UHGV virus genome: UHGV-0115014
DNA length: 40,109 nt
Reading direction: 5' to 3' (one strand)
From: a virus
The position numbers and the translations under genes are program-made. Positions within the stretch are counted from its first letter, which is position 1; the number at the start of each line of letters is the position of its first letter. This document shows positions 50 to 36,049 of this stretch, piece after piece. Under the pieces are notes generated by a model. That model worked only from the letters and a program-made list of their open reading frames with translations, ran no database searches and was not told where the DNA came from.

Positions 50-1306
50 GTGCTTACCGATACAAAATTAAAAAACCTCAAGCCGCAGGACAAACTGTAC
101 AAGGTCTCCGATCGTGACGGGCTGTATGTAGCTGTGCTTACGTCAGGAACGGTCTCGTTTCGCTATGACTACCGTATCAACGGTCGCCGCGAAACACTGG
201 TAATCGGGCAGTATGGGCGTGACGGTATCAGCCTGGCAGAAGCGCGAGAAGAACTGATTGCTGCAAAGAAGCTGCTTAAAGCAGGCCAGTCGCCGGCTGC
301 GGCTAAACGTGACGGTATCAAAAAGATTCGTGGTGCCGAGACGTTTGCGGTACATACCGACAGTTATATGAAACACGTCATCCTAGCTGACAGTACCCGC
401 GCAATGAAGCAGGCGGTGATCGACCGTGACATACTTCCTGTTCTTGGTAACAAAATGATGGCTGAAATTACCACATCGATGGTTCGTGATTTGTGTGACC
501 GGATTGTCGAACGCGGCGGCCGGGCAACAGCAGTGCAGGCCAGGGAGATCATCAGCAGCGTATACCGTCATGCCAATGACCGTGGTCATGGTTTGTTTAA
601 TCCTGCTGCTGACATTAAACCTTCGTCTATCGCCATATTTAAACCACGAGAGCGAACACTTACACCAGAAGAAATTGGTCTGTTCTTCCGCACGCTGGAT
701 GCCATTGGTGCTATGGGCACTATGAAAATGGCTTTAAAGCTGGTGCTTATCACTATGGTTCGTAAAGGCGAATTCACCAATGCAACGTGGGACGAAATAG
801 ATTTTAAAAAATGGACATGGACAATTCCTTCAGACCGCATGAAGGGAAGCCGGGCGCATGTTATTTACCTGCCTAAACAGGCACAGGATATATTGGTCGG
901 GTTGCAGATGTGCGCTGGTGGAAGTGAATATCTGGTTCCTGGTCGTTACAACTTCCGGAAGCCATTATCTAATGCCGCGCTGAACTCTCTGATCGACAGA
1001 ACGGTGAAAATAATAAATGAAGATGGTGAGCATATTCAGGACTTCACCGTACATGATATGCGCCGTACAGCCAGTACGTTATTGCATGAGGCTGGTTATC
1101 CTTCAGACTGGATTGAAAAGGCTCTGGCACATGAGCAGAAAGGTGTGCGCGCCGTATATAACAAAGCGGAATACGCCAGACAGCGCGCCTACATGTTGCA
1201 GCAGTGGGCCGATATGATTGATTCCTGGATTAACGGGGAGCATACGGATCTGATTCCGTTCTCCCCGTCGAAGTTTGAGAAGTGGATGGAAGACAGTAAT
1301 AAATAA
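50..1306 (+). CDS. int: Tyrosine integrase, P4-like prophage integrase family
   Basis: 418-aa ORF with GTG start; N-terminus MLTDTKLKNLKP typical of P4/CP4-57-type integrases; C-terminal catalytic block HDMRRTASTLLHEAGY and downstream Tyr region; located at extreme left of the phage gene set. Confidence 0.9.
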   Translation: MLTDTKLKNLKPQDKLYKVSDRDGLYVAVLTSGTVSFRYDYRINGRRETLVIGQYGRDGISLAEAREELIAAKKLLKAGQSPAAAKRDGIKKIRGAETFAVHTDSYMKHVILADSTRAMKQAVIDRDILPVLGNKMMAEITTSMVRDLCDRIVERGGRATAVQAREIISSVYRHANDRGHGLFNPAADIKPSSIAIFKPRERTLTPEEIGLFFRTLDAIGAMGTMKMALKLVLITMVRKGEFTNATWDEIDFKKWTWTIPSDRMKGSRAHVIYLPKQAQDILVGLQMCAGGSEYLVPGRYNFRKPLSNAALNSLIDRTVKIINEDGEHIQDFTVHDMRRTASTLLHEAGYPSDWIEKALAHEQKGVRAVYNKAEYARQRAYMLQQWADMIDSWINGEHTDLIPFSPSKFEKWMEDSNK

Positions 1307-3314: not shown

Positions 3315-4256
3315 TTACATAGATGTTTCGTTTAATTCTTCCCGACGAACGCTGTAAACGTCGGTGGCTTTTGCCAGCAGTTCGTCATCATCTGAAAGTT
3401 TTTGTGCAATGTATTTGTAAGCCTTATCCAGTTCGGAGACAGTGCTGTAATTCATCGCTGCGCTGGTAAAGGCCATCAGCATTTCTTCTGGATCACGGCT
3501 GTCCGATTTACGCGTTTGCTCATCAGGCTTTTTCGCTGGTTTAGCGTTGATCAGACTGTTCATTCCCGCAGCAGTGGTCGTTTGCGGAGTAATGTCTCGC
3601 TCAACGCGCGGTGCCGTTTCCTGTAATTCGTCTGGGGTGTAGACGCCCATGATTACGTCAGGACAGTGCAGGCGAGACCAGCGTTTTGTCGCAAGGTATG
3701 CGAGTTGTTGTTTCGGATCACTGGCCCAAAGTGTGGAGTTTCTTACCTGTGCTTGAGACAGCATTAACTCAAGCACTCGAGGTTGATCCTCGCCCTTCAT
3801 GGTTGCCCATACGCGAACACCGCAGCCTTCTTCGTCTTTTAGAGTCCAGCCTGGTGCGATATATGGATTGCCGTTTTTGGATGTTTTCTCAACAAACTTA
3901 CCGATCACGCGTTCCCACGGCCCGAACCACTCGTAGTTGATGCGATCTTTTGTTGGCGACATCGTTGAGATAACTGCGTTTACTAATTGGGCTTCATAAC
4001 CTAGCGTGCCGTTCACAACATGGGTTTTCTGAGCCACGGCAAACGGGTTCATTCCCCACTGCGCAGCCTGCATTGCCACGGCCATGCAATCAGCTGGTTT
4101 CCCGGCGAGGTGCGCCGGTACCGTTACGCGGCTTTGCGCCATTACCTCGGCGAATTTCATCAGTTGGTTCAAGCCGTCTGGGCTGAAAATAGTTGCAGCA
4201 GTTCCAGCGATTGCTGTGTCTACTGGTGCGTTGATGTTTGCGATGTCGTTGCTCAT
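3315..4256 (-). CDS. recT: RecT-family single-strand annealing recombinase
   Basis: Table ORF 3315..4283, start placed at MSNDIANIN; RecT/Bet-like sequence character; ATGA overlap with upstream exonuclease gene. Confidence 0.75.
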   Translation of the reverse strand: MSNDIANINAPVDTAIAGTAATIFSPDGLNQLMKFAEVMAQSRVTVPAHLAGKPADCMAVAMQAAQWGMNPFAVAQKTHVVNGTLGYEAQLVNAVISTMSPTKDRINYEWFGPWERVIGKFVEKTSKNGNPYIAPGWTLKDEEGCGVRVWATMKGEDQPRVLELMLSQAQVRNSTLWASDPKQQLAYLATKRWSRLHCPDVIMGVYTPDELQETAPRVERDITPQTTTAAGMNSLINAKPAKKPDEQTRKSDSRDPEEMLMAFTSAAMNYSTVSELDKAYKYIAQKLSDDDELLAKATDVYSVRREELNETSM

Positions 4257-5074
4257 ATGTACATATCCTGTTTGCGTGCCCACTCAGGGCGTTTAATGAT
4301 TTCCACACCGCCCCATTCATCATTGATGCGGCATTCGTGATAGGTATTCAGATCCCGGCGGAACAGAGCGTGCCCGGCATCGACATCCGGCGCATCCAGC
4401 TCGAACACGCGTACCGGATACCGACCACAATCAATGCTTTCGCTCACGGCAAGAAAGAAAAAACCATGCGGCTGACCAGTAACCCTCATTGCGCCTTCGC
4501 GGTACATTGCGTCCTGCACGTGGTAGCGGAATTCCTCGATGTGGCGTGCAAAACGGTCCATATCTGCAACCTTTTTCACGTCGACGATCACGTTGTGCTC
4601 GTTCAGCCATTTGTCTGGACGAATGCGGCACAACTCACCAGTCTCTTCATCGTTCCAGTACATTGATGCTTCGCAGTAACCAGGTGCTTCCAGCATCCAG
4701 CGTGCCGCCGGGTGAGCCATTGCGCTATCACGCATCAGCTCCAGTTTCCGCCACTGCTCGGCATCAAGTACCGTAATCCCCATATCCGCTACATCACGAA
4801 GAAATGCTTCTTCGTCAGCTTTACCTTGTTTCGTCCGACGATCGAATTTCGGTGAAACAATGAAGCGTTTGTTGAATTCTCCAGGCTCCAGAAGCAGACA
4901 GTGCAATGCGGTTCCCATATCCAGTGCAGACTTTTTCTCTTCGTCTTCCGGAGCAGCCTTCACCCATTTCAGAAGGGCAGGGTTCTTAGCCACCATATCT
5001 AGCTGCGACTTACTCACGCCGTCACCGGCGTGGTAGTCCTCATTGCTGATGTCGAAATAGATGCCAGTATTCAT
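4253..5074 (-). CDS. RecE-like exonuclease (PD-(D/E)XK type, exonuclease VIII C-terminal-domain-like)
   Basis: 273 aa directly upstream of and coupled to recT, the usual exonuclease/annealase pairing of Rac-like prophages; acidic catalytic-looking block IVDVKKVADMD. Confidence 0.65.
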   Translation of the reverse strand: MNTGIYFDISNEDYHAGDGVSKSQLDMVAKNPALLKWVKAAPEDEEKKSALDMGTALHCLLLEPGEFNKRFIVSPKFDRRTKQGKADEEAFLRDVADMGITVLDAEQWRKLELMRDSAMAHPAARWMLEAPGYCEASMYWNDEETGELCRIRPDKWLNEHNVIVDVKKVADMDRFARHIEEFRYHVQDAMYREGAMRVTGQPHGFFFLAVSESIDCGRYPVRVFELDAPDVDAGHALFRRDLNTYHECRINDEWGGVEIIKRPEWARKQDMYI

Positions 5075-5747: not shown

Positions 5748-5824
5748 TTACCGTTGAGGTAATAATTATGCGTATTTGGTTTGATGTCAATAGATATGAG
5801 TTAAAAAAATTACCCGTTAGGTAA
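5748..5824 (-). promoter_or_regulatory. Leftward early promoter region flanked by two TTACC-N5-GGTAA operator-like palindromes
   Basis: TTACCGTTGAGGTAA (about 5748-5762) and TTACCCGTTAGGTAA (about 5810-5824) bracket a minus-strand TTGACA (plus 5785-5790) and AT-rich -10-like sequence; immediately upstream of leftward operon. Confidence 0.45.
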
Positions 5825-5881: not shown

Positions 5882-6466
5882 TTATTGTTTGTTTTTTTCG
5901 TTCTGGTTGATGACAAATTCAATGTAACTTTCGATCTTTGCTTTCTCGGTTTCTGGTAACAAAGCGTAGCGCGAGCGGTCATAGTTGATAGTCGCAGGGT
6001 CGTGCGGGTGAATCAGTAATTCATAGCCGTGACGCCCGAATGCGGATGCAACATTCTCCAGGGTGGAAATGGAAACGCTGACCTCATTGTTTAACAGGCG
6101 GCTGATTGTCACCTGGGCGACGCCGGATGCGCGGTGAAGTTTTCCCTGCGTTGAAAGGTCGCGGCTTTCGCTCATCCAGCGTTCCAGGTTGTGAGCCGCC
6201 AGTTGACCAATGTCGCTTGGTCCGACAGGCTGAAAACCTTCCTGAGAAAGCGAGCGATCGATATCAAGCCAGTTACGGGGTTTATTGGCGGCAGCTTCAA
6301 TTTTTCGCGCAACCTGGTCGCCGATAACCTTCTTGCCAAGAGCCCAGCGGTTTACCAGATTTGCCTGAGTTCCAAGTTTTTCAGCCATCCGCGTCTGAAC
6401 ACCATTGAATTCACGGTCGATCAAGTCGTTGAGATTTTGCCTGCGGACGTCCTGGATACTTTTCAT
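5882..6466 (-). CDS. Phage repressor-like protein with two HTH (XRE/Cro-C1-type) domains, no S24 peptidase domain
   Basis: 194 aa; two helix-turn-helix blocks (GVQTRMAEKLGTQANLVNRWALGKK and ASGVAQVTISRLLNNEVSVSISTLENVASAF); divergent from Cro-like gene; followed by intrinsic terminator. Confidence 0.7.
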   Translation of the reverse strand: MKSIQDVRRQNLNDLIDREFNGVQTRMAEKLGTQANLVNRWALGKKVIGDQVARKIEAAANKPRNWLDIDRSLSQEGFQPVGPSDIGQLAAHNLERWMSESRDLSTQGKLHRASGVAQVTISRLLNNEVSVSISTLENVASAFGRHGYELLIHPHDPATINYDRSRYALLPETEKAKIESYIEFVINQNEKNKQ

Positions 6467-6620
6467 TTTCTGGAAAATCGCCTCATATCTGAATCAGAAG
6501 ATGATTCAATTTAAAGCAATATTACCCAACAGGTAAATGCACCTCATGGGTAACTATCCTTGATTTTTGTTACCTTATAGGTGAATATTTATTATCTGAA
6601 ATAAATATCAGGCAATAGCT
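6467..6620. promoter_or_regulatory. Divergent repressor / cro control region with operator-like palindromes
   Basis: TTACCCAACAGGTAA (about 6522-6536) and TTACCTTATAGGTGA (about 6570-6584) between divergent HTH genes; TTGATT -35-like element near 6560. Confidence 0.5.
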
Positions 6621-26803: not shown

Positions 26804-29278
26804 ATGAGACAGGAATGTATACAAGCGGTCCAGCAGGCGGCGCAGCGCACGTTAACGGCGCGAGAAATACAGAACATTGAAGACCGCATTTATCGAAATA
26901 TGCGCTCCATTGCTCGTGATGACCCGATGTCGTGGCGACAACTTTCCGAATCAGAACGGTTGTATCGTGCAGCACAATTGGCATCTGAAGAATTACAGCG
27001 AGAAGCGGCATTAAAGAAACGTCGTGTGGCCCTCACTATAGCCGCACGTCAGAGATTGGATAAATTTATCAATAGCTATCAAGGGGCTGATGGGAAACTT
27101 GGCGCTCTTAACCGTACTATTGCTTTTAATGCAGACGGTAAATCGAATTTCCTCTCTGTTGAATCCAGAACAAAAGCCACCCGTGATTATGCATTGAGTC
27201 AATTGCAGGAGGCATTCGAAGCAGTTGATCCTCGCTTTTTTGGTCTGTTTGAAGATGAAGCGGGCGTACGTGACCTGGTATATGAAATGCGGGGGCAAAA
27301 TACTGGCAATGCTAAAGCAAGAAAAGGTGCTAAGGCGTGGAGAGAAGTTACAGAGCTGCTGCGCCGCCGGTTTAATGATGCTGGTGGGGACATTGGCTAT
27401 CTCGAAAACTGGGGGATCCCTCAACATCATTCTATGGAAAAGGTTGGGGCGGTATCAAAGGATAAGTGGGTTAGCGATGTTATAGGTAAGCTGGATCGCA
27501 AATATTATACCCGAGCCGATGGACAACTGATGAACGATGCCGAGTTGTCTGAATTTCTTGGAGAGGCTTATAACACGATCGCTACTGGTGGGCTGAATAA
27601 GCTTACTGATACCGGAATGCGAATTTCCGGCGCACGTGCTAACCGTGGTAATGCATCACGACAGATACATTTCAAAGATGCAGATTCCTATCTGCAATAT
27701 CAGCAACTTTATGGCGATCGCTCTCTATGGGAAATCATGGTCGGTCACCTTGAAGGTATCAGTAAAGATATTGCACTGGTGGAAACATATGGCCCAAACC
27801 CCGATCATGTTTTCCGCTCTCTTCTTGATCAGGTGAAGGCAGAAACGGCAACAGCTAACCCGAGTAAAACCGGTAGCGTCGAGCGTCTGGCGAACAAAAC
27901 AGAGAACCTGTACAACTTTATTTCCGGAAAAACACAGCCTGTAGCGAATCCGCACATCGCGCGATGGTCTGACAATATCCGCAACTGGCTGGTTGCCAGC
28001 AGACTCGGATCCGCGTTGCTGTCATCGTTCTCTGATCTTGGAACCATGTATCTGTCTGCGAAGGTTACCAACCTTCCAATGAACCAGTTATTCCGCAACC
28101 AGCTTGAAGCTATGGACCCAACGAACCGTACAGAACTTGCGCGGGCGCGCCGCGCTGGTCTGGCGATGGAATCTCTACTTGGCAGCGTTAACCGCTGGGC
28201 GATGGATAATATGGGGCCGTCTGTGTCTCGTTGGGCTGCAACGGCGGTAATGCGTGCCAGTGGGCTTACAGCATGGTCAGATGCGCACAAGCGCGCCTAT
28301 GGCGTAACCATGATGGGAAGCCTGGGAGAAGTAGTGTCACGGACACCAGACCTTCGTCGCCTCGATGACTCTGATTTTCGTATCCTGAAAAGCAAAGGGA
28401 TTACTGACACAGACTGGAGCGTATGGAAGTTGGCGCAACAGGAGGACTGGGGGAACGGTAATAATACGATGCTGACACCGGAAAGCATTATGCGTATCCC
28501 TGATTCAGCAGTTAAACATCTTGGTGAGCCTGAACGCGTGAAATTTGAGGCAATGCGTAAACTGCTCGGTGCCGTAACTGAAGAAGTTGATATGGCTGTT
28601 ATTACACCGGGCGCACGTGAACAGATGTTCGTAGGGTCTGGTCTTCAGCGTGGAACATGGAAAGGTGAATTAACGAGAAGTGTTTTCCTGTTTAAATCGT
28701 TCCCTATCTCTGTAGTTATGCGTCACTGGCATAGAGCTATGGGGATGCCGTCTGCTGGTGGGCGTGCAGCATATATAGCAACGTTTTTAGCAAGCACAAC
28801 CATGCTTGGTGCTCTTTCCATGCAGATTACTGATCTTATTAATGGGAGAAATCCAAAAGAAATGACCGGTGACAACATGGTTAAATTCTGGATGAATGCA
28901 TTTTTAAAAGGTGGTGGTGCAGGGTTGTATGGTGATTTTCTTTTCTCTGACCACACCAGGTACGGAAGCGGCGCGTTGGCGTCGATGCTTGGCCCGGTAG
29001 CTGGTCTGGTTGATGACGTAGTGAAGATAGCTCAGGGCATACCGCTAAATGCTGTGGAAGGGAAGAGTGAGCAGACTGGTGGTGATCTGGTTAAGCTGGG
29101 GAAGGGGCTGATGCCAGGTGCGAATCTCTGGTACTTGAAGGCGGCTCTCGATCATATGATCTTTAACCAGATGCAGGAGTATTTTTCACCAGGCTATTTG
29201 CGTAAAATGGAGCAACGTTCGAAGAAAGAGTTTAACCAGACATACTGGTGGCGACCTCAGGATGTCACTCCGCAATAA
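26804..29278 (+). CDS. Internal virion / ejection protein (gp16-like position)
   Basis: 824 aa; last of three consecutive large proteins in the core/ejection block. Confidence 0.5.
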   Translation: MRQECIQAVQQAAQRTLTAREIQNIEDRIYRNMRSIARDDPMSWRQLSESERLYRAAQLASEELQREAALKKRRVALTIAARQRLDKFINSYQGADGKLGALNRTIAFNADGKSNFLSVESRTKATRDYALSQLQEAFEAVDPRFFGLFEDEAGVRDLVYEMRGQNTGNAKARKGAKAWREVTELLRRRFNDAGGDIGYLENWGIPQHHSMEKVGAVSKDKWVSDVIGKLDRKYYTRADGQLMNDAELSEFLGEAYNTIATGGLNKLTDTGMRISGARANRGNASRQIHFKDADSYLQYQQLYGDRSLWEIMVGHLEGISKDIALVETYGPNPDHVFRSLLDQVKAETATANPSKTGSVERLANKTENLYNFISGKTQPVANPHIARWSDNIRNWLVASRLGSALLSSFSDLGTMYLSAKVTNLPMNQLFRNQLEAMDPTNRTELARARRAGLAMESLLGSVNRWAMDNMGPSVSRWAATAVMRASGLTAWSDAHKRAYGVTMMGSLGEVVSRTPDLRRLDDSDFRILKSKGITDTDWSVWKLAQQEDWGNGNNTMLTPESIMRIPDSAVKHLGEPERVKFEAMRKLLGAVTEEVDMAVITPGAREQMFVGSGLQRGTWKGELTRSVFLFKSFPISVVMRHWHRAMGMPSAGGRAAYIATFLASTTMLGALSMQITDLINGRNPKEMTGDNMVKFWMNAFLKGGGAGLYGDFLFSDHTRYGSGALASMLGPVAGLVDDVVKIAQGIPLNAVEGKSEQTGGDLVKLGKGLMPGANLWYLKAALDHMIFNQMQEYFSPGYLRKMEQRSKKEFNQTYWWRPQDVTPQ

Positions 29279-29307
29279 GGAAGTGTTGTGTTTTTAATTA
29301 TTTTGAG

Positions 29308-29463
29308 TGTGATAATTTCTGGTGGATTGTTATTTATTGACCGCTACAAATATTTTCTTAACCCTCAGACTCAAGCTATTTGCTGGTTCATCTTTGTTGT
29401 GCAGGGAGTAGTTCTTGTTGCAAGCCTTATTGAGGGGAGGCCTCTGATTTTTAATGGGTAAAT
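29308..29463 (+). CDS. Small hydrophobic protein (51 aa)
   Basis: Unlisted small ORF with GTG start; one TM-like segment AICWFIFVVQGVVLVASLI. Confidence 0.2.
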
Positions 29464-29473
29464 AGGTGACTAC

Positions 29474-29770
29474 ATGCAAGCTATAGGATTCATTGTTTAT
29501 ATCGTCGTTGGTCTTTTTCAGTTGGCAGCAATTATGGCTGGGCTTGAATCATGGTGGGGGTTGCACTGGGTAATTGCAGCTCCCGTTGCTTTTGTCGTGA
29601 GTTATATTCCGTTTGTTGGAGCGATTGTTGGTATGATTGGCGCTGTGGATGTATGGCGGTGGGAGTGGTGGCAGGCTGGCCTTCTCTTCTTTGGTGGGAT
29701 CATCTTTGCTATTGTCTGCGGTGGAATGTCATCATTTTTCGAACGGCTATCATTCAGAAAAGGAACGTGA
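29474..29770 (+). CDS. Small integral membrane protein (about 3 TM segments)
   Basis: 98 aa, strongly hydrophobic; stop codon lies inside a GTGACATGTCAC palindrome. Confidence 0.5.
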   Translation: MQAIGFIVYIVVGLFQLAAIMAGLESWWGLHWVIAAPVAFVVSYIPFVGAIVGMIGAVDVWRWEWWQAGLLFFGGIIFAIVCGGMSSFFERLSFRKGT

Positions 29771-29778
29771 CATGTCAC
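29767..29778. repeat. 12-bp perfect palindrome GTGACATGTCAC (copy 3)
   Basis: Exact palindrome containing stop of membrane protein gene 29474..29770 and ATG of plus-strand ORF 29772..29915. Confidence 0.6.
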
Positions 29779-29801
29779 AGGCCGCTTTCGCGGCCTTGTT
29801 T

Positions 29802-29963
29802 TTAACGAATGCCACCGCCACCCGGGCGGGAATCCGCAGAACGCCCACCGCAGCGGGAGCCGTCAGCGGCAGTATCGCTGTCGTGCTGACAACGACCGGC
29901 AAAGGCCTGAGTTGAAGCTACCAGAGACAACAAAACGAACAGTGCAGCAAATGCTTTTTTCAT
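29802..29963 (-). CDS. Small secreted peptide (signal peptide plus 31-aa Cys-containing mature part)
   Basis: MKKAFAALFVLLSLVASTQAFA signal peptide with AxA cleavage motif; TTGACG-N16-TATAGA promoter-like sequence upstream on minus strand; antisense-overlaps alternative plus-strand ORF 29772..29915, so strand assignment is uncertain. Confidence 0.35.
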   Translation of the reverse strand: MKKAFAALFVLLSLVASTQAFAGRCQHDSDTAADGSRCGGRSADSRPGGGGIR

Positions 29964-30032
29964 TGTGAAATTTCCATCTATAATCCACCTCAATGTGGCG
30001 TCAATGAGTGTAGCACTGACTTTTGTTTCGTC

Positions 30033-30057
30033 CACAAAAAAGCCCGCGGCGCGGGCT
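30033..30057 (-). terminator. Intrinsic terminator after YafO-like gene
   Basis: Minus-strand GCCCGCG-CCG-CGGGC hairpin followed by TTTTTTGTGG; overlaps stop codon. Confidence 0.6.
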
Positions 30058-30602
30058 TATTCCTTCCATTTATCAGAAAAAAGATCTTCTTCTAAAGGCA
30101 TTGGTTCTGTTTTTGTTTTCTCAAAGAATTGATAACTGATAGTGATTGCTGCCTCTTTAAACTCTTCTTGCTCAGTTATGTTGTGGGCATCTGCGTCAAC
30201 AAAAAACATAACCAGCGCATCACGATTGTGATTTACCGAATAAACTAAAAAGCAATTACTTGTTGGTATGCATTTTACTTGCACAGACGCTATTTTTTTC
30301 CATGCATCCCAAGATGATTTTTTACCAGTGTGTTTTTTATCACTATCTTCTGGAATATAGTCTTGGTTATCGACATGAGTATGCCTGACATTTAGTTTAA
30401 GCATTTCTGTCGGACGAGCAAATGCAGCATCTTTACCAAGAGATGGATGGTATCCCGTTTTCCAATACTGGGTAAAGGCATCAGATACTTTCTTCAGCTC
30501 AAGATCAGATGCACAAAGGGCCGAGAAATTTTGCGTATGCAATACTCGACCCTTATATCTGACAATTTGATTTTTATCATTCTGCGACGCAGACGAACTC
30601 AT
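30057..30602 (-). CDS. YafO-family toxin-like protein
   Basis: Table ORF 30057..30629 with start at MSSSAS; region DAFTQYWKTGYHPSLGKDAAFARPTEMLKLNVRHTHV and FLVYSVNHNRDALVMFFVD aligns with E. coli YafO blocks ADFISYKRDGVLPDIFGRDALY...LIKFERVAHIHL and HLVYCQGAFDEQAWLLIAIL (recalled from memory); intrinsic terminator at 3' end. Confidence 0.45.
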   Translation of the reverse strand: MSSSASQNDKNQIVRYKGRVLHTQNFSALCASDLELKKVSDAFTQYWKTGYHPSLGKDAAFARPTEMLKLNVRHTHVDNQDYIPEDSDKKHTGKKSSWDAWKKIASVQVKCIPTSNCFLVYSVNHNRDALVMFFVDADAHNITEQEEFKEAAITISYQFFEKTKTEPMPLEEDLFSDKWKE

Positions 30603-30756
30603 AATTTTCCTTATTGTTACGAGAATCAAAGAAAGCGCGGGATACGCGACTTGCGTGATCTTTTGTCATAGTAACTTTTACGCACTCTACGCTTCCATTG
30701 AAAGAACGTCTTGCGGCAGCTTGCGCTCTACGCATCTGCAATTTTTCGTTTCGCAT
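30577..30756 (-). CDS. Small basic ORF upstream of YafO-like gene (candidate antitoxin or leader peptide)
   Basis: Unlisted 59-aa ORF MRNEKLQMRRAQAAARRSF...; overlaps start of YafO-like gene in another frame; speculative. Confidence 0.2.
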   Translation of the reverse strand: MRNEKLQMRRAQAAARRSFNGSVECVKVTMTKDHASRVSRAFFDSRNNKENYEFVCVAE

Positions 30757-30816
30757 GACATTACCTCATATCTCATAAGTTCATTACACGGATTAATAAA
30801 AATGAAACCAATCCGT

Positions 30817-30831
30817 TTACCCTTGAGGTAA
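30817..30831. promoter_or_regulatory. TTACC-N5-GGTAA palindrome upstream of YafO-like cassette
   Basis: TTACCCTTGAGGTAA about 60 bp upstream (minus strand) of small ORF start 30756. Confidence 0.4.
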
Positions 30832-30903
30832 TAGTACGCTATTCACCCACAGTCTGCAATCTGTACAGAATTATTTAAAGGCACATCCCTGTGCCGCCGC
30901 CCG

Positions 30904-31599
30904 TCAGAAGAACCCTGCCTTGTCGTTGATGTACTCCGCGTGCGTCTGGATATCACGCAGGCATTTGCTCACACCGACGATGTAACAGAACATGGTGGTC
31001 AGCTCCGCCGCCGCGCCCGATACGTCGTGCCCGTCGTCCTGTAACTGGTTCAGCAGATTCATCAGCAGTGAGTTCTCCGTCAGGCCGAGAACACCAGACG
31101 GAGAATGAATCAGGCTGCGGTAGCCGGGCTTCAGCGGGGCACTGTAGGTTTTGTTCTCTATCTTCATTGCCTGCATTACTGCTGACGCCGTGGCGTTGGC
31201 TACCTGGTCGGCAACCATCTTTATGCGTTCTTCCTGCGGTAGCGAGTTTTTAATGTAACTTCCGGTGCGGCGGATCTGAGGAAGAACCTCACCTGTAACC
31301 CATTTACGAAAGCGGTAGGGGATAGTGCCTGGTGTCACCGCATCGCGGCAGCGGAGGATCAGTGTGTAGAGGCCTGACTCGGAGATGATGATCGATTCTT
31401 GCTCACCGCCAGGGGTGTCGGTTGAAGCGACGCCCTTCTCATCATCATCAAGTTTTCGAACAGCATCTCGATGGTTTGCTATGCCTATAGCCCGACAAAC
31501 ATCTGAAGCGATAAACCATGGCTCACCATTAATGACGATTACTCGTATATCGGCTTGGGATTCGAAAGAAAAAATGGACGTGCTTTTTGTAGCTGTCAT
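30904..31599 (-). CDS. Bro-N domain protein (antirepressor-like)
   Basis: 231 aa; N-terminal block VIVINGEPWFIASDVCRAIGIANHRDAVRKL is a Bro-N/antirepressor-type signature; C-terminal 70 aa are paralogous to ORF 32747..33004. Confidence 0.7.
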   Translation of the reverse strand: MTATKSTSIFSFESQADIRVIVINGEPWFIASDVCRAIGIANHRDAVRKLDDDEKGVASTDTPGGEQESIIISESGLYTLILRCRDAVTPGTIPYRFRKWVTGEVLPQIRRTGSYIKNSLPQEERIKMVADQVANATASAVMQAMKIENKTYSAPLKPGYRSLIHSPSGVLGLTENSLLMNLLNQLQDDGHDVSGAAAELTTMFCYIVGVSKCLRDIQTHAEYINDKAGFF

Positions 31600-31868
31600 A
31601 GTGGTTACCTTTTAGTCAGGTTAATCACCACTACCGACGCCAATCGGTTGGTGGTGAACTGTGCAGGGTTGGCGTAACCGGCTAAAAGGACCCGGCGCAC
31701 CTTTCGGTGCCCCCACACAGCCCACCATAATACGAATGTGGCCGTGCTATACGCATAAAAAAACCGCTTGCGCGGTGAATGCGCCTTTTAGTAATCCGGG
31801 ACGCCAATCCCGGCACTGGATTTTGCCAGTGCCCGATTACTATGGCACAAGAGGAGTGCAATGTAAAT

Positions 31869-31976
31869 TTACCGCAAAGGTAATGATAAACGCGGAGAAA
31901 TATTAAAATCAACCGCATTTGGTTGATTGCGTTTAACGCTTGATCACCTGAAAGCAAGATATTACCTTTAAGGTAA
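31869..31976. promoter_or_regulatory. Pair of TTACC-N5-GGTAA palindromes upstream of zinc-ribbon membrane protein gene
   Basis: TTACCGCAAAGGTAA (about 31869-31883) and TTACCTTTAAGGTAA (about 31962-31976), the latter 20 bp before ATG 31997. Confidence 0.45.
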
Positions 31977-31996
31977 TGTTATTGTGAGGAAAAGCA

Positions 31997-32725
31997 ATGG
32001 AAGTTTTCTGGATAGTTGTTGGTGTTGTTACGGTGATTATTTACGTTATCAACCAGAACAGGACTAAGGTCTCTGATCGCACAGTCGTTAATCATCGCAA
32101 AACGATAAAGACCGAAGATGGAGAAATAACGATTAATCGTACACAGGTGATAGACCACACCTCCACTCAGTTTCAAAAAACTGGAGGTAATGCGCCTAAT
32201 ATTTCCGCACCTCCTGCTTATGATAGTGCGGTAATCCAGACATATTATAAACAGCAGGAGTTAGCAAAAGAGAGGCAACTGATTCAGCCAAAGCCATTTA
32301 CAGCAGAGCTTCCACCTGGAGTGTCAACGCGTCCGGCATATCATGGAAGATTCCCTGGTGATGACATATCGTCTCAGTCATCTAAAAAAGCACCTCAGGC
32401 AGTATCAGAGCCAGCAAGAATACCTTCTGTATCGCCGCCAAAAGAAGAATCAGCTAACAGAGTTTCAAGTGGTAGCAAGCAGTGCTTGCGATGCAGAATA
32501 AACCTTCCATATGAAAAATTCAGGAAATCGTCAAAAAATCCAGATGGATTGACTAAGTGGTGTGCAAGGTGTCTCGATGGTCCAAAGAATACACGCCATA
32601 TGAAGTGGTGCCCAATTTGTAATGTCCGCAGAAAACGAACCAGCTTTTACCCTAATAATCAAAATGCGGATGGCTTAATGGCATGGTGCAAAACGTGCTG
32701 GGACGAGCACAAAGCGAAACGATAG
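31997..32725 (+). CDS. Membrane-anchored protein with two C-terminal zinc-ribbon repeats
   Basis: N-terminal TM helix VFWIVVGVVTVIIYVI, Pro/Ser-rich linker, then duplicated modules CLRC...DGLTKWCARC and CPIC...DGLMAWCKTC; several in-frame AGA/AGG codons; followed by intrinsic terminator. Confidence 0.55.
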   Translation: MEVFWIVVGVVTVIIYVINQNRTKVSDRTVVNHRKTIKTEDGEITINRTQVIDHTSTQFQKTGGNAPNISAPPAYDSAVIQTYYKQQELAKERQLIQPKPFTAELPPGVSTRPAYHGRFPGDDISSQSSKKAPQAVSEPARIPSVSPPKEESANRVSSGSKQCLRCRINLPYEKFRKSSKNPDGLTKWCARCLDGPKNTRHMKWCPICNVRRKRTSFYPNNQNADGLMAWCKTCWDEHKAKR

Positions 32726-32748
32726 GCCGCTCTAGCGGCCTTTTCTTT
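32724..32748 (+). terminator. Intrinsic terminator after zinc-ribbon membrane protein gene
   Basis: GGCCGC-TCTA-GCGGCC hairpin followed by TTTTCTTT. Confidence 0.6.
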
Positions 32749-33004
32749 ATGTGGTTTGTTTTCGTAATTGTTCGGCACAATAGTCGAGATGTGTTTGCAA
32801 ATCCTGCATAGACATCTGTGAGCTGGTGACGTAGTTAATCAGTGCAGTCAGTTCGGCAAGTGGGCCATCGACATTAAATCCATCCTTATCGAGATCCCGG
32901 AGTAATTTCATCAAGTGCGATCCCTCCACCAGTGACCTGACGCCTCCCGGCGTGTGAATCCTTTCGGTAAATCCGTCTTCCAGTGGATAGTGATACTGCT
33001 GCAT
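32747..33004 (-). CDS. Small protein homologous to the C-terminal domain of the Bro-N protein
   Basis: Table ORF 32747..33022 with ATG start at MQQYHY after GGAGAAG SD; about 40-45 percent identity over 70 aa with the C-terminus of 30904..31599 (LMKLLRDLDKDGFNVDGPLAELTALINYV...DLQTHLDY versus LMNLLNQLQDDGHDVSGAAAELTTMFCYI...DIQTHAEY). Confidence 0.55.
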   Translation of the reverse strand: MQQYHYPLEDGFTERIHTPGGVRSLVEGSHLMKLLRDLDKDGFNVDGPLAELTALINYVTSSQMSMQDLQTHLDYCAEQLRKQTT

Positions 33005-33080
33005 CTTATCTTCTCCATGCAATAACTGTATATTTATACAGTATCAAATAATTTGTTTGCTATCCAGCACGTTTTGCAAA

Positions 33081-33095
33081 TTACCCGAAAGGTAA
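33081..33095. promoter_or_regulatory. TTACC-N5-GGTAA palindrome upstream of tail fiber gene
   Basis: TTACCCGAAAGGTAA about 105 bp before ATG 33200, followed by ATGTGGTT at 33128-33135. Confidence 0.4.
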
Positions 33096-33199
33096 TATCT
33101 GTTCATATTCACAGTCTTTCTATCCATATGTGGTTTTTCAGGTAATAGAATAACCAGATATGCGGCGCAACGGGTGCTGCGACTATCTGGAGATTTAAC

Positions 33200-36049
33200 A
33201 TGACGGTCTCAACCGAAGTTGACCACAACGAATACACAGGTAACGGCGTTACGACATCATTTCCGTATACCTTCCGTATTTTCAAAAAATCCGACCTGGT
33301 TGTTCAGGTGTCTGACCTTAACGGTAACGTAACAGAACTAGTGCTGGATGCTGGTTATACAGTAACAGGGGCGGGAACTTATAGTGGCGGTGCAGTGGTT
33401 CTTCCGTCGCCGCTTGCTGCTGGCTGGCGAATCACGATAGAGCGTGTGCTTGATGTGGTGCAGGAGACTGATCTTCGCAATCAGGGAAAATTTTTCCCCG
33501 AAGTTCATGAAGATGCATTTGACTACCTGACGATGCTGATCCAGCGATGTTTTGGGTGGTTCAGACGTGCATTGATGAAACCATCTTTGCTTGCAAAATA
33601 TTACGATGCAAAGCAAAACAGAATTTCCAATTTGGCCGATCCGAAGAACTCTCAGGATGCTGTAACAAAAAAATATGTGCAAGACTTATATAGTGGGGTA
33701 GTTAGGCCTGATAACATCGACAACGCAATGTATGTTACAGATCTCGCTAATGGCAAATATGACAGCTCTCGCTTGGACATGTCTGTCGGGTATGAGATAA
33801 AAACCATTTCAAACTTTGTCAGGATTAATGGGGCTGTTTATCGTGTTACTCCTGCTGCAGTCGGCATAGTGACAGAAATAACCTCGCGTTACATTTTGGC
33901 CGGAGGGAAAAAAAGCTACCTGTCTCATATTTCCAGGCATGTCAGTGGTACGCGTAGGCCGCTGAACTGGAAATTAGAATTCAGCATCATAGACGATGAG
34001 ATTACCGCAGATCTTAAAGATCAGTATGGTTACACGACCATGGGATTTCAGGGGATTTACATAGACAGCAATGATGGAATGGTATACATCGGCTGGCAGA
34101 CGCTAGACCCCGCATCGGTATGGGTTACGGTGCATGACTGGGTAACAGGAGCATTGGTAACACGTCTTCATTTTCCGAATAACGTTGGTGCACCAGAAGG
34201 CATCCACGTTTACCGAGTGGCAGGACAGCGTTACATCCTGCTGCCGTACAGCCCATCTCGCACTATCAGAATTTACCCTATCGAAGATCCGCGTACGCTG
34301 GTTGATAAAACGCAGATTACAAACTTCACTGAATCAACACGCCTTGGAGTGCGATATCAGTTTAGTGGCTTTGGTAATACCCTGATATACGAAAATGCGG
34401 ATATGGGTTGGCCGAAAATTTTTGATGTTGAGACAGGTGTATCCAATATCTTTAACACACTGGATATTAACAGCCTTATAGAAGGATCTTACAGTCCAAT
34501 GGGGACTATTACGGTTGATGCAAATGTTGGAGGTCGCGGAGCCGGTAAACCAAAACGGCAGGGTGTCGCTCTTGGTTCTCAACGGATATTTGCTGGTATT
34601 GGTGCATCTACCACGGCGGGATCTGGAAATACTTTCGCAGGGTTGCAGGGTTATATTGAGTACAGCCTTAATGGTTCAGAATTAGGTCAGTACCTGCTGT
34701 CACCTGCAGATTTCAAAACATACTGGGATAGTTATTCAGGGAAGAGTGTTTACTCCACTGAAAATGAGGGGGTGCAGTCTTGTGATATTTCTGGCTCTGA
34801 GGAATTGTATCTTCTACAGTCTATTCGCTATGACAATGGGGGCGGATCAAATTATAGGACTTTAAACATCATTCGCGCTAACTGTCCATCTAATGAACCT
34901 GGAACAGTAGACATGACTCCGCTATCCAATGCCTCATCACAGTTATTTAACCCTCGCGGAAGGGTGATTAACGCTGGCCGTCACCCTGTAAACCCGGCTG
35001 ATGGTATTGCGCTATTTACATCGGCACAGGCTATTTGTGACTATTTGCGGAATACAGATGCAGGTAGATATGTGACATATCTTGAACAGGATATGCCACT
35101 GTTTGAAGGTGGGCCATCTGCGCCAGGACAGATGACGCTGCCAGCATTCTGCCTATTGCAGATCGACTTCATCAACGGCGATACCTGGGAAATTACAGTT
35201 AATGGAACTAACAGGGCTAATAATTATACAGGAAGGATTTCCAAAAACGGCGGGTACAACTCTTTTACTAAGGTGTCCTCCCGCAGCATGTCGATTCTCG
35301 GATCCCCTGGTCTGGTTGATGTATCAATTCGCTCACCTAACTCACTAAATCTTCCAGAATTTGCTGGAGACTGGTCTACTGGTGTAAGTATAGGAGCTGC
35401 AGGTGGGGTGACAAACTGGCAGCCAGAAGGAACAGGTAACGGAGCATTATGGGAGTCAGGATATGCAAAAAACCGTGTGTTGCAGATATTCATGTCCACA
35501 ACATCAAAACTGTTCTTCCGCTACGCAGACGATGCTATTCGCGCAGGTAACACAGGCTGGGCTGAGGCATGGTCGTCGCTGAACACGACCGTCGATTCAA
35601 GTGGTTTCATCAAAAAAGCCTCTCCGGTTGTGAAGATTTTCTCAGACGGTAGTAGTGAAACAAATCGCGAATCAGATGGGGTAACCGTCACACGGCTGGC
35701 ATTAGGGGAATATCTGATTGAGGGTTGCGTAGGTCTGAATGCAGATGCTTCATGGGGGGGGATTGATGGTGGATTTGAAATACCGCAGGACCGAAACAAG
35801 CAGCCGCTCATCTGGCTGGATTATGTTGTTAACCAAGATGGCTCTGTGTTGGTGAAAACGTTTCACCGCACTCATGATAACTCGCCAGTTTTTGCACGTA
35901 ACGACATCCCTGGTGTTTCGAACGGTGACCCGATCGACATTCCTGCTAATCAGTTCGTTTCTGTGCGAGTACAGATGCCTGAGGATTCAGCATGGAATAA
36001 GCTTAAGGAACAACTCAATAAGGCTGAACCAATGGAAAAAAATAAGTAA
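33200..36049 (+). CDS. Tail fiber / tailspike protein with T7 gp17-like N-terminal adaptor domain
   Basis: 949 aa; N-terminal 150 aa (EYTGNGVTTSFPYTF...VVQVSDLNG...LDAGYTVTG...GWRITIERV...NRISNLADPKNSQDAV) parallels the T7 gp17 N-terminus pattern as recalled; the remaining 800 aa are not recognisably related. Confidence 0.7.
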   Translation: MTVSTEVDHNEYTGNGVTTSFPYTFRIFKKSDLVVQVSDLNGNVTELVLDAGYTVTGAGTYSGGAVVLPSPLAAGWRITIERVLDVVQETDLRNQGKFFPEVHEDAFDYLTMLIQRCFGWFRRALMKPSLLAKYYDAKQNRISNLADPKNSQDAVTKKYVQDLYSGVVRPDNIDNAMYVTDLANGKYDSSRLDMSVGYEIKTISNFVRINGAVYRVTPAAVGIVTEITSRYILAGGKKSYLSHISRHVSGTRRPLNWKLEFSIIDDEITADLKDQYGYTTMGFQGIYIDSNDGMVYIGWQTLDPASVWVTVHDWVTGALVTRLHFPNNVGAPEGIHVYRVAGQRYILLPYSPSRTIRIYPIEDPRTLVDKTQITNFTESTRLGVRYQFSGFGNTLIYENADMGWPKIFDVETGVSNIFNTLDINSLIEGSYSPMGTITVDANVGGRGAGKPKRQGVALGSQRIFAGIGASTTAGSGNTFAGLQGYIEYSLNGSELGQYLLSPADFKTYWDSYSGKSVYSTENEGVQSCDISGSEELYLLQSIRYDNGGGSNYRTLNIIRANCPSNEPGTVDMTPLSNASSQLFNPRGRVINAGRHPVNPADGIALFTSAQAICDYLRNTDAGRYVTYLEQDMPLFEGGPSAPGQMTLPAFCLLQIDFINGDTWEITVNGTNRANNYTGRISKNGGYNSFTKVSSRSMSILGSPGLVDVSIRSPNSLNLPEFAGDWSTGVSIGAAGGVTNWQPEGTGNGALWESGYAKNRVLQIFMSTTSKLFFRYADDAIRAGNTGWAEAWSSLNTTVDSSGFIKKASPVVKIFSDGSSETNRESDGVTVTRLALGEYLIEGCVGLNADASWGGIDGGFEIPQDRNKQPLIWLDYVVNQDGSVLVKTFHRTHDNSPVFARNDIPGVSNGDPIDIPANQFVSVRVQMPEDSAWNKLKEQLNKAEPMEKNK

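Follow-up and report, generated by a model that had tools for sequence, protein, structure and literature searches.

The 40,109-nucleotide stretch described here (UHGV virus genome UHGV-0115014; "the window" refers to this stretch at its full length) is a complete phiV10/epsilon15-like (Uetakevirus-type) Escherichia coli prophage, and two of its genes are the subject of this report, one encoding a 231-residue protein with a Bro-N domain and the other a protein of 85 residues. Both lie in a slot that runs from the gene for the last large virion protein (26804..29278) to the tailspike gene, both are on the minus strand, and a zinc-ribbon gene on the plus strand separates them. An earlier sequence-only reading of the region had placed the two ORFs at these positions, had pointed out that the C-terminus of the larger protein resembles the smaller one with an estimated 40–45% identity and a shared motif, and had suggested that the free copy could be a decoy, an anti-antirepressor, or an immunity factor. 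The features that bear most directly on function are as follows.

32747..33004, minus strand: ant, a small SPC32H-type antirepressor gene encoding a standalone Ant domain (85 aa), with an ATG start and a GGAG Shine-Dalgarno sequence upstream.
33024..33043, minus strand: predicted LexA (SOS) box, TACTGTATAAATATACAGTT, located 20 nt upstream of the ant ATG and overlapping a TATAAA -10-like hexamer.
30904..31599, minus strand: large antirepressor gene (231 aa), consisting of Bro-N, a linker helix, and an Ant-like domain.
31279..31551, minus strand: Bro-N domain, residues 17–107 (Pfam PF02498, E 2.3e-21, 76.7 bits with a cut-off of 25.6).
30922..31152, minus strand: Ant-like C-terminal domain, residues 150–226 (phmmer against 5D50_E, E 1.9e-13).
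5882..6466, minus strand: Rep (194 aa), a 5D50_A homologue and the presumed target of both antirepressors.

BLASTP aligns residues 150–223 of the Bro-N protein with residues 8–81 of the small protein without gaps, and 31 of the 74 positions are identical (42%; E=3e-19), in agreement with both the earlier estimate and the motif. The small protein has a single phmmer match among PDB sequences, chain E of 5D50 (annotated 'Anti-repressor protein', 86 aa), which is the Ant protein of Salmonella phage SPC32H, whose crystal structure was determined together with its repressor; residues 2–85 correspond to 3–86 of the chain with an E value of 1.3e-47. The two proteins are ~87% identical and equal in length to within one residue, the members of the family having 85–86 residues, and a program-made ORF list begins the small ORF at TTG 33022 instead of at ATG 33004. 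The small protein also matches phrog_450 (E 7.5e-48), a group of phage proteins of roughly 88 residues labelled 'unknown function', and the C-terminus of the Bro-N protein matches the same group (E 6.3e-36). The ant gene shares its position and orientation with that of SPC32H, divergent from the tailspike gene, and has a dN/dS of 0.06 between the window and SPC32H.

The predicted LexA box has a near-consensus core, CTGT-N8-ACAG, at 33026–33041, and this pattern is found four times in the window where 0.61 would be expected. Alignment shows that the box is kept in SPC32H and phiV10; it is present too in TL-2011b, Tyrion, and a metagenomic relative, and a Klebsiella phage has a variant with one mismatch. 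There is a second CTGT-N8-ACAG sequence (CTGTTCATATTCACAG) at 33099–33114, between ant and the tailspike gene, which we do not count as a LexA site because it is not conserved in SPC32H or phiV10; it may be a chance occurrence or a strain-specific extra site.

The repressor gene lies in the rep-cro region at ~5.9–6.9 kb. Rep matches 5D50_A (annotated 'Repressor') over residues 1–190 with an E value of 4e-42, its Pfam matches are all of the HTH type, and no Peptidase_S24 domain was found among them, as the sequence-only reading had noted when it proposed that induction is driven by an antirepressor. In SPC32H, according to the summary of Kim & Ryu 2013 given in PMC7380047, Rep remains uncleaved upon SOS induction and is inactivated by the small Ant, whose gene is under LexA repression. 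PMC9638917 and PMC9986798 describe an Ant tetramer that binds two Rep dimers via the Rep C-terminal domain, breaking the DNA-binding Rep tetramer. Because the 85-residue protein is an orthologue of SPC32H Ant, its gene has a LexA box, and the window encodes a Rep homologue lacking S24, we predict that this gene is the primary SOS-controlled antirepressor rather than a by-product of the Bro-N gene.

The Bro-N protein as a whole matches phrog_130, 'anti-repressor Ant' (E 2.2e-62), and Pfam identifies no domain beyond Bro-N (residue 107). An AlphaFold2 model of residues 140–231 in isolation has a pLDDT of 76.3, and when this model was compared with the PDB using Foldseek the only meaningful matches were chains G and H of 5D50 (probability 1.00, TM 0.70–0.78, 38% identity), with the next match at E>5. 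A Foldseek search of the PDB with the full-length model returned nothing significant (best E 0.1), with a weak SKI/Dachshund-like winged-helix hint for the Bro-N part, which leaves the C-domain model as the usable one. An alignment of the Ant family contains 17 invariant columns. G21, L25, S29, G42, and E51 (Ant numbering) are invariant across standalone and fused members and are retained in the C-domain of the window protein, and Y4, L34, L35, Y58, and H72 are near-invariant in both classes.

Experimental evidence relating to the larger protein is provided by phage vB_EcoP_ZX5, whose ORF4 is identical to it at 230/231 positions (99.6%). Overexpression of ORF4 lowered lysogens from 10^9 to 10^6 and reduced rep mRNA by 75% (Li et al. 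2022, Pathogens 11:1445, PMC9782041). That study recognized only the Bro-N domain in ORF4 and named three lysogeny proteins, leaving the small gene as hypothetical (PMC9782041); ZX5 carries an unnamed ORF identical to the small protein over 84/84 residues. From this and from the homology we infer that the C-domain is the part of the Bro-N protein that acts on Rep.

Paralogous domains might instead work against each other through mixed oligomers, such that the small protein would serve as a decoy or anti-antirepressor, or Ant would be damped by a dominant-negative Bro-N protein. Co-assembly is conceivable, as SPC32H Ant is reported to be tetrameric (PMC9638917) and the two genes occur together in many phages, but hetero-oligomerization is not assured at 42% identity. 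The small protein is, however, orthologous to a self-sufficient antirepressor, is found without a Bro-N partner in SPC32H, SPN1S, and epsilon15-type phages, and has its own LexA box, and the Bro-N protein is pro-lytic when overexpressed in ZX5, a phage that also has the small gene. We regard antagonism of this kind as quite improbable; the evidence to date has both proteins favouring lysis, with no sign that they oppose one another. The earlier interpretation is thus partly upheld: the homology, the S24-less repressor, and antirepressor-driven induction stand, whereas the role assigned to the free copy does not, since this copy is the SPC32H Ant orthologue with its own LexA box and occurs alone in the Salmonella relatives.

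An exhaustive search with the small protein of 1.84 billion cluster representatives identified only 44, which are either standalone proteins (82–95 aa) or the C-terminal domains of longer ones. The longer members have N-termini of the Bro-N (P0138), AntA (P0137), or Phage_pRha (P0130, P0134) types; the C-domain of the AntA-fused protein is nearly identical to that of the window, and the AntA and Rha versions occupy the same slot, with the tailspike, the small ant, and the large fused gene in that order. The fused architecture is widespread, as the best 120 clusters cover 97–100% of the query at 68–100% identity, and these span E. coli, Shigella, Salmonella, Citrobacter, Enterobacter, and Klebsiella. 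Among 50,697 phage records the Ant-like domain is present in 32, and all 32 lie among the 37 records with a Rep homologue. The Salmonella members (SPC32H, SPN1S, and epsilon15-type phages) have one Ant-like copy and no Bro-N gene, and standalone and fused copies are both present in the E. coli phiV10-like phages, Tyrion, and three Klebsiella phages. These comparisons point to the C-domain as the constant, Rep-linked part of the protein and to the N-terminal module as the exchangeable one.

The distribution also bears on whether the similarity is simply a passive relic of mosaic recombination, with a duplicate of ant fused behind Bro-N, a functionless C-domain, and a Bro-N protein acting solely via its N-terminal DNA-binding module. 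The region is indeed a hot spot of recombination, each relative having its own cargo there, and in phiV10 a frameshift divides the large gene into p23 (194 aa) and p22 (29 aa), seen as two tblastn pieces at positions 1795–2474 of the phiV10 locus, such that the Ant-like domain is interrupted in the type phage. Nonetheless, the C-domain has a dN/dS of 0.23 relative to Tyrion at a dS of 0.6, indicative of purifying selection. More than 100 clusters, drawn from six genera, have it intact, it is the part that is kept where AntA or Rha takes the place of the N-domain, and it is confined to Rep-bearing phages. The dN/dS value and the N-domain swaps lead us to reject the relic, or pseudogene, explanation as very improbable. 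The Bro-N protein is better described as an accessory member of the system, with a variable and swappable N-domain, a frameshift in phiV10, and probable gating by isrK and C4 RNAs as described below.

The 400 bp upstream of the Bro-N gene, nominally intergenic, carry an RNA cassette with the following elements.

31757..31832, minus strand: isrK-type RNA (Rfam RF01394, 77.9 bits with a gathering score of 50, E 3.8e-16).
31647..31732, minus strand: C4 antisense RNA (Rfam RF01695, 77.7 bits with a gathering score of 45, E 1.2e-14).
31608..31643, minus strand: downstream C4 target, consisting of TTGGCGT (31643–31637) and CTAAAAGG (31615–31608).

The two C4 loop elements, CCTTTTAG (31689–31682) and ACGCCAA (31675–31669), each have exact 7–8 nt complements inside isrK (TTGGCGT at 31807–31801 and CTAAAAGG at 31791–31784) and again in the downstream target, and isrK ends in a terminator hairpin at 31776–31763. 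The downstream element at 31615–31608 covers the Shine-Dalgarno sequence of the Bro-N gene, 8 nt before the ATG at 31599, and a putative leader of 37 codons with a GTG start (31718..31605) ends 5 nt before that ATG. The pairing pattern suggests that C4 represses translation of the Bro-N protein.

The cassette lies upstream of the fused gene in all seven loci having one, and loci with both are found in the window, TL-2011b, phiV10, ZX5, Tyrion, a Klebsiella phage, and the AntA and Rha variants; neither the cassette nor a fused gene was found in SPC32H. The combination of isrK and C4 is a mobile module, with 278 phage records containing it, among them those of Stx phages, APSE, and SfV. The antirepressor behind isrK/C4 in an Stx2a phage has no significant similarity to the window protein (E 0.097), and the matches of Stx phages to this region therefore reflect the shared RNA cassette and not the Ant-like domain. 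Protein-coding calls have been placed over the cassette in two relatives. In ZX5, whose published description (PMC9782041) recognizes neither the RNA cassette nor the Ant-like C-domain, an 'ash family protein' CDS (positions 1522–1635 of the ZX5 locus) overlies the C4 RNA (1508–1593), and in the Rha-fusion locus (L008) the call for the 319-residue protein (4001–4960) starts inside isrK/C4 (4003–4189). Both are probably annotation artefacts.

The window contains 11 copies of a 15 bp palindrome, TTACC-N5-GGTAA, for which 0.02 would be expected. The copies, at 5748, 5810, 6522, 8853, 8915, 10041, 13201, 30817, 31869, 31962, and 33081, are all in intergenic or promoter-like positions, and three are especially relevant here.

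33081..33095, no strand: TTACC-N5-GGTAA, candidate Rep operator upstream of the ant promoter region.
31869..31883, no strand: TTACC-N5-GGTAA, candidate Rep operator ~37 nt upstream of the isrK 5′ end.
6522..6536, no strand: TTACC-N5-GGTAA, candidate Rep operator in the rep-cro intergenic region.

The palindrome at 33081 is kept in 4/4 aligned phages, with one mismatch in the Klebsiella phage, and the SPC32H rep-cro intergenic region has two adjacent copies. The 31869–31883 copy abuts a -35 hexamer, TTTACA (31867–31862), and an equivalent palindrome is present upstream of isrK, in one copy each, in all six other loci with the cassette and a fused gene; none was found at the Stx-phage cassette. 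Of the other copies in the region, that at 31962 is upstream of the zinc-ribbon gene and that at 30817 is upstream of a YafO-like operon. We interpret the palindrome as a candidate dispersed operator for Rep, and because one abuts the isrK promoter, Rep itself probably also controls the isrK-C4-antirepressor operon.

Rep of the window is 100% identical to the ZX5 and phiV10 repressor and only ~42% identical to SPC32H Rep, whereas Ant is ~87% conserved between the window and SPC32H. The difference suggests that Ant may recognize a conserved feature of diverged and possibly heteroimmune repressors, with a potential for cross-induction as in the Gifsy phages. An effector family that tolerates divergence of Rep would also suit an explanation in which Ant is responsible for self-induction and the main task of the Bro-N protein is anti-immunity or cross-talk directed at the heterologous Rep variants of other resident prophages, as with P1 and P22 Ant upon superinfection. 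The phiV10 annotation, 'putative anti-immunity protein', is in keeping with this, the heteroimmunity of P1/P7 immI is based on cassettes of the C4 type, and the Gifsy antirepressors act across heteroimmune repressors (PMC3121763). However, ZX5 ORF4 shifted the lysis-lysogeny balance of ZX5 itself, the E. coli phages with the fused gene all share an identical Rep, and the operon is linked to the phage's own repressor by the candidate operator beside the isrK promoter. A predominantly anti-immunity role is unlikely in our view, and it differs in emphasis from, and is compatible with, a role for both proteins in inducing the prophage that encodes them.

We consider it probable that the window encodes two antirepressors acting on one non-cleavable Rep via paralogous effector domains, each responding to a different signal. 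LexA would repress ant through the SOS box over its promoter, and removal of LexA by DNA damage would let Ant accumulate and bind the C-terminal domain of Rep, breaking the DNA-binding Rep tetramer and inducing the prophage. The 231-residue protein would be expressed from a gene transcribed behind isrK and a C4 cassette of the P1 immI or Gifsy-1 isrK-anrP type. In a lysogen, C4 would pair with two elements, one of them over the Bro-N gene Shine-Dalgarno sequence, keeping translation off, and the short isrK RNA, which bears the same two elements, would either titrate C4 or remodel the mRNA. The large antirepressor would then provide an SOS-independent route of induction, or anti-immunity on superinfection, with superinfection, or a physiological cue of the kind reported for IsrK, as the second signal. 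The homology, the motifs, the RNA families, the co-occurrence with Rep, and the purifying selection are all direct observations from the genomes compared, and the literature on near-identical or orthologous proteins is the source for the Rep-Ant complex, for control by LexA, and for the activity of both proteins as antirepressors.

Several considerations weigh against this proposal. The binding and genetic evidence stems from other phages and not from the window prophage, and because Rep is only ~42% identical to that of SPC32H, a contact between Ant and Rep in the window is an extrapolation. The C-domain, at 42% identity to Ant, could have changed its partner. The ZX5 evidence comes from crude overexpression of a GST fusion, without domain dissection or Rep binding, and the large gene is dispensable, as it is frameshifted in phiV10. 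The full-length Bro-N protein is modeled by AlphaFold2 with low confidence (mean pLDDT 62.5, ~80 for the Bro-N part and ~50–60 for the C-domain), and the proposal explains no role for the Bro-N module. An Rfam match to the c4-a1b1 model at 31793–31845 scores 45.1 bits, just below the gathering score of 46.7.

A broader generalization can be offered more tentatively, as one that falls somewhat short of an even chance: phiV10-like prophages may carry modular, RNA-gated antirepressors in which Bro-N, AntA, or Rha modules are fused to a paralogue of the SOS antirepressor, in an operon wired back to Rep by an operator located at the promoter of isrK. DNA damage (LexA/Ant) and an RNA-based immunity or physiological signal (IsrK/C4/large Ant) would thereby be integrated by a single repressor. 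The N-terminal module might bring the Ant domain to Rep on its DNA sites, or contribute a further activity.

The remaining features of the window that are referred to here are the following.

50..1306: integrase gene.
33200..36049: tailspike gene.
31997..32725, plus strand: zinc-ribbon membrane protein gene (phrog_6762, 242 aa), between ant and the isrK cassette.
32724..32741, no strand: G+C-rich, terminator-like hairpin in the 21-nt gap between the stop codons of the convergent ant and zinc-ribbon genes.

The window also contains a RecT/exonuclease region and virion genes. The region at 29.8–33.3 kb is 97.5% identical to phage TL-2011b, portions of it match phiV10, HEMP4, ZX5, and others, and the cargo of the antirepressor slot differs in each relative compared. 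The zinc-ribbon protein has a hydrophobic helix at its N-terminus, two CxxC-type zinc-ribbon repeats at its C-terminus, and weak matches to the Endo VII, HNH, and Lar-like families. Its gene is absent between ant and isrK in ZX5 and phiV10, relative to which it is an insertion, and it stands outside the antirepressor system; the TL-2011b record marks the equivalent merely as a misc_feature. The hairpin at 32724–32741 is probably a bidirectional terminator that keeps transcription of ant separate from that of the cassette downstream.

Downstream of the Bro-N gene, at 30057..30756 on the minus strand, are genes for a YafO-like protein of 190 residues and an overlapping upstream ORF of 59 residues (30577..30756). 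The larger protein matches Pfam YafO_toxin at an E value of 7.6e-5 (under the cut-off) and phrog_1651, and its TL-2011b counterpart is labelled 'type II TA system YafO family toxin'; the two may constitute a toxin-antitoxin or moron pair, for which a separate TTACC-N5-GGTAA site lies at 30817. Beside the antirepressor region, 29802..30035 (minus strand) and 29474..29770 (plus strand) encode two small proteins that are predicted to be membrane-bound or secreted and represent moron-like cargo; one has 98 residues and is in phrog_3075, and one is a 77-residue ORF with a signal-peptide-like 'MKKAFAALFVLLSLVAS' segment.

Of 5,426 complete E. coli genomes in RefSeq, 529 carry ant together with its LexA box. 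The gene is annotated there as 'hypothetical protein', even though a crystal structure of its orthologue is available. DNA for the Ant-like C-domain of the large gene is found in 470 genomes. Approximately one in ten complete E. coli genomes thus carries a gene whose annotation can be corrected to SOS antirepressor, and the accompanying 'Bro-N domain protein' can be re-annotated as a second antirepressor with the same effector fold and predicted isrK/C4 RNA control. The uncharacterized C-terminus of one group of BRO/AntA/Rha 'antirepressors' gains a structural identity and a predicted target, the Rep C-terminal domain. A further prediction is an SOS-independent induction or anti-immunity route in widespread prophages, including phages of O157 and other pathogenic E. 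coli.

The components of this system are known individually: the SPC32H Ant/Rep/LexA switch, control of antirepressors by C4 and IsrK, and BRO-type domain shuffling. What appears to be undescribed in the literature searched is that the C-terminus of a large antirepressor is a paralogue of Ant, that this C-domain strictly co-occurs with Rep, and that isrK/C4 gating is combined with a candidate operator at the promoter. The advance thus lies in how these known mechanisms are linked, and no new principle is involved.

Among the closest known systems is the Ant/Rep/LexA switch reported for SPC32H (Kim & Ryu 2013, J Virol 87:11775; Kim et al. 2016, PNAS 113:E2480; PDB 5D50, 5D4Z), which has the same ant position, a LexA box at the promoter, and an S24-less Rep homologue. 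SPC32H lacks a second antirepressor and isrK/C4, whereas the window adds the Bro-N-fused paralogous Ant domain. ZX5 is like the window in having a near-identical ORF4, an identical Rep, and an identical small ant, and differs in lacking the zinc-ribbon insertion.

The isrK-orf45-anrP region of Gifsy-1 resembles the window in having isrK and a C4-type cassette directly upstream of an antirepressor gene whose product has a KilA-N/Bro-like N-module, and a separate small LexA-controlled antirepressor is present there too. In Gifsy-1, translation of the read-through mRNA is turned on by the short form of IsrK, and induction of the prophage by AnrP does not depend on SOS (Hershko-Shalev et al. 2016, PMC4825925). 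Gifsy-1 differs from the window in that AnrP has an ORF6N N-domain and the repressor is of a different family. We assigned GfoA to STM2621.1n by inference from the gene order dinI-gfoA-irsA; AnrP (STM2616) has no similarity to this presumed GfoA (E 8.2) and none detectable to the Ant domain. A general rule that the C-domain of the large antirepressor is a paralogue of the small SOS antirepressor thus fails in Gifsy-1, and the shared effector domain is peculiar to phiV10-like phages.

A P22-type immI region (mnt-arc-ant with sar RNA) was also considered for the window and rejected, as there is no sar match and no Arc or Mnt gene at 29000–33400. Such a module is present in TL-2011b, at positions 280–1464 of the TL-2011b locus, and includes an Arc-like repressor, Ant, and sar RNA (451–518); TL-2011b thus has three antirepressor genes in a 45-kb phage.

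The immI system of P1 and P7 is like the window in having a C4 RNA with two loops complementary to upstream and downstream sites, the downstream one occluding a ribosome binding site ahead of the antirepressor. It differs in that the window has no icd homologue and the C4 target is on the antirepressor's own Shine-Dalgarno sequence; moreover, the antirepressor of the window is unrelated to P1 Ant, and the window phage is a podovirus. C1, the primary repressor of P1, also controls the immI operon, and this reach is paralleled by the candidate Rep operator at the isrK promoter, just as the many dispersed palindromes of the window resemble the numerous C1 operators of P1.

The Bro-N protein also has the general form of the modular BRO/KilA-N/Rha/AntA regulators reportedly described by Iyer, Koonin, and Aravind in 2002 in Genome Biol, with an N-terminal DNA-binding-type module joined to a variable C-domain and shuffled between phages. 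Unlike BRO-type regulators in general, the C-module in the window is identifiable, as it has the fold of SPC32H Ant, for which the protein target is known.

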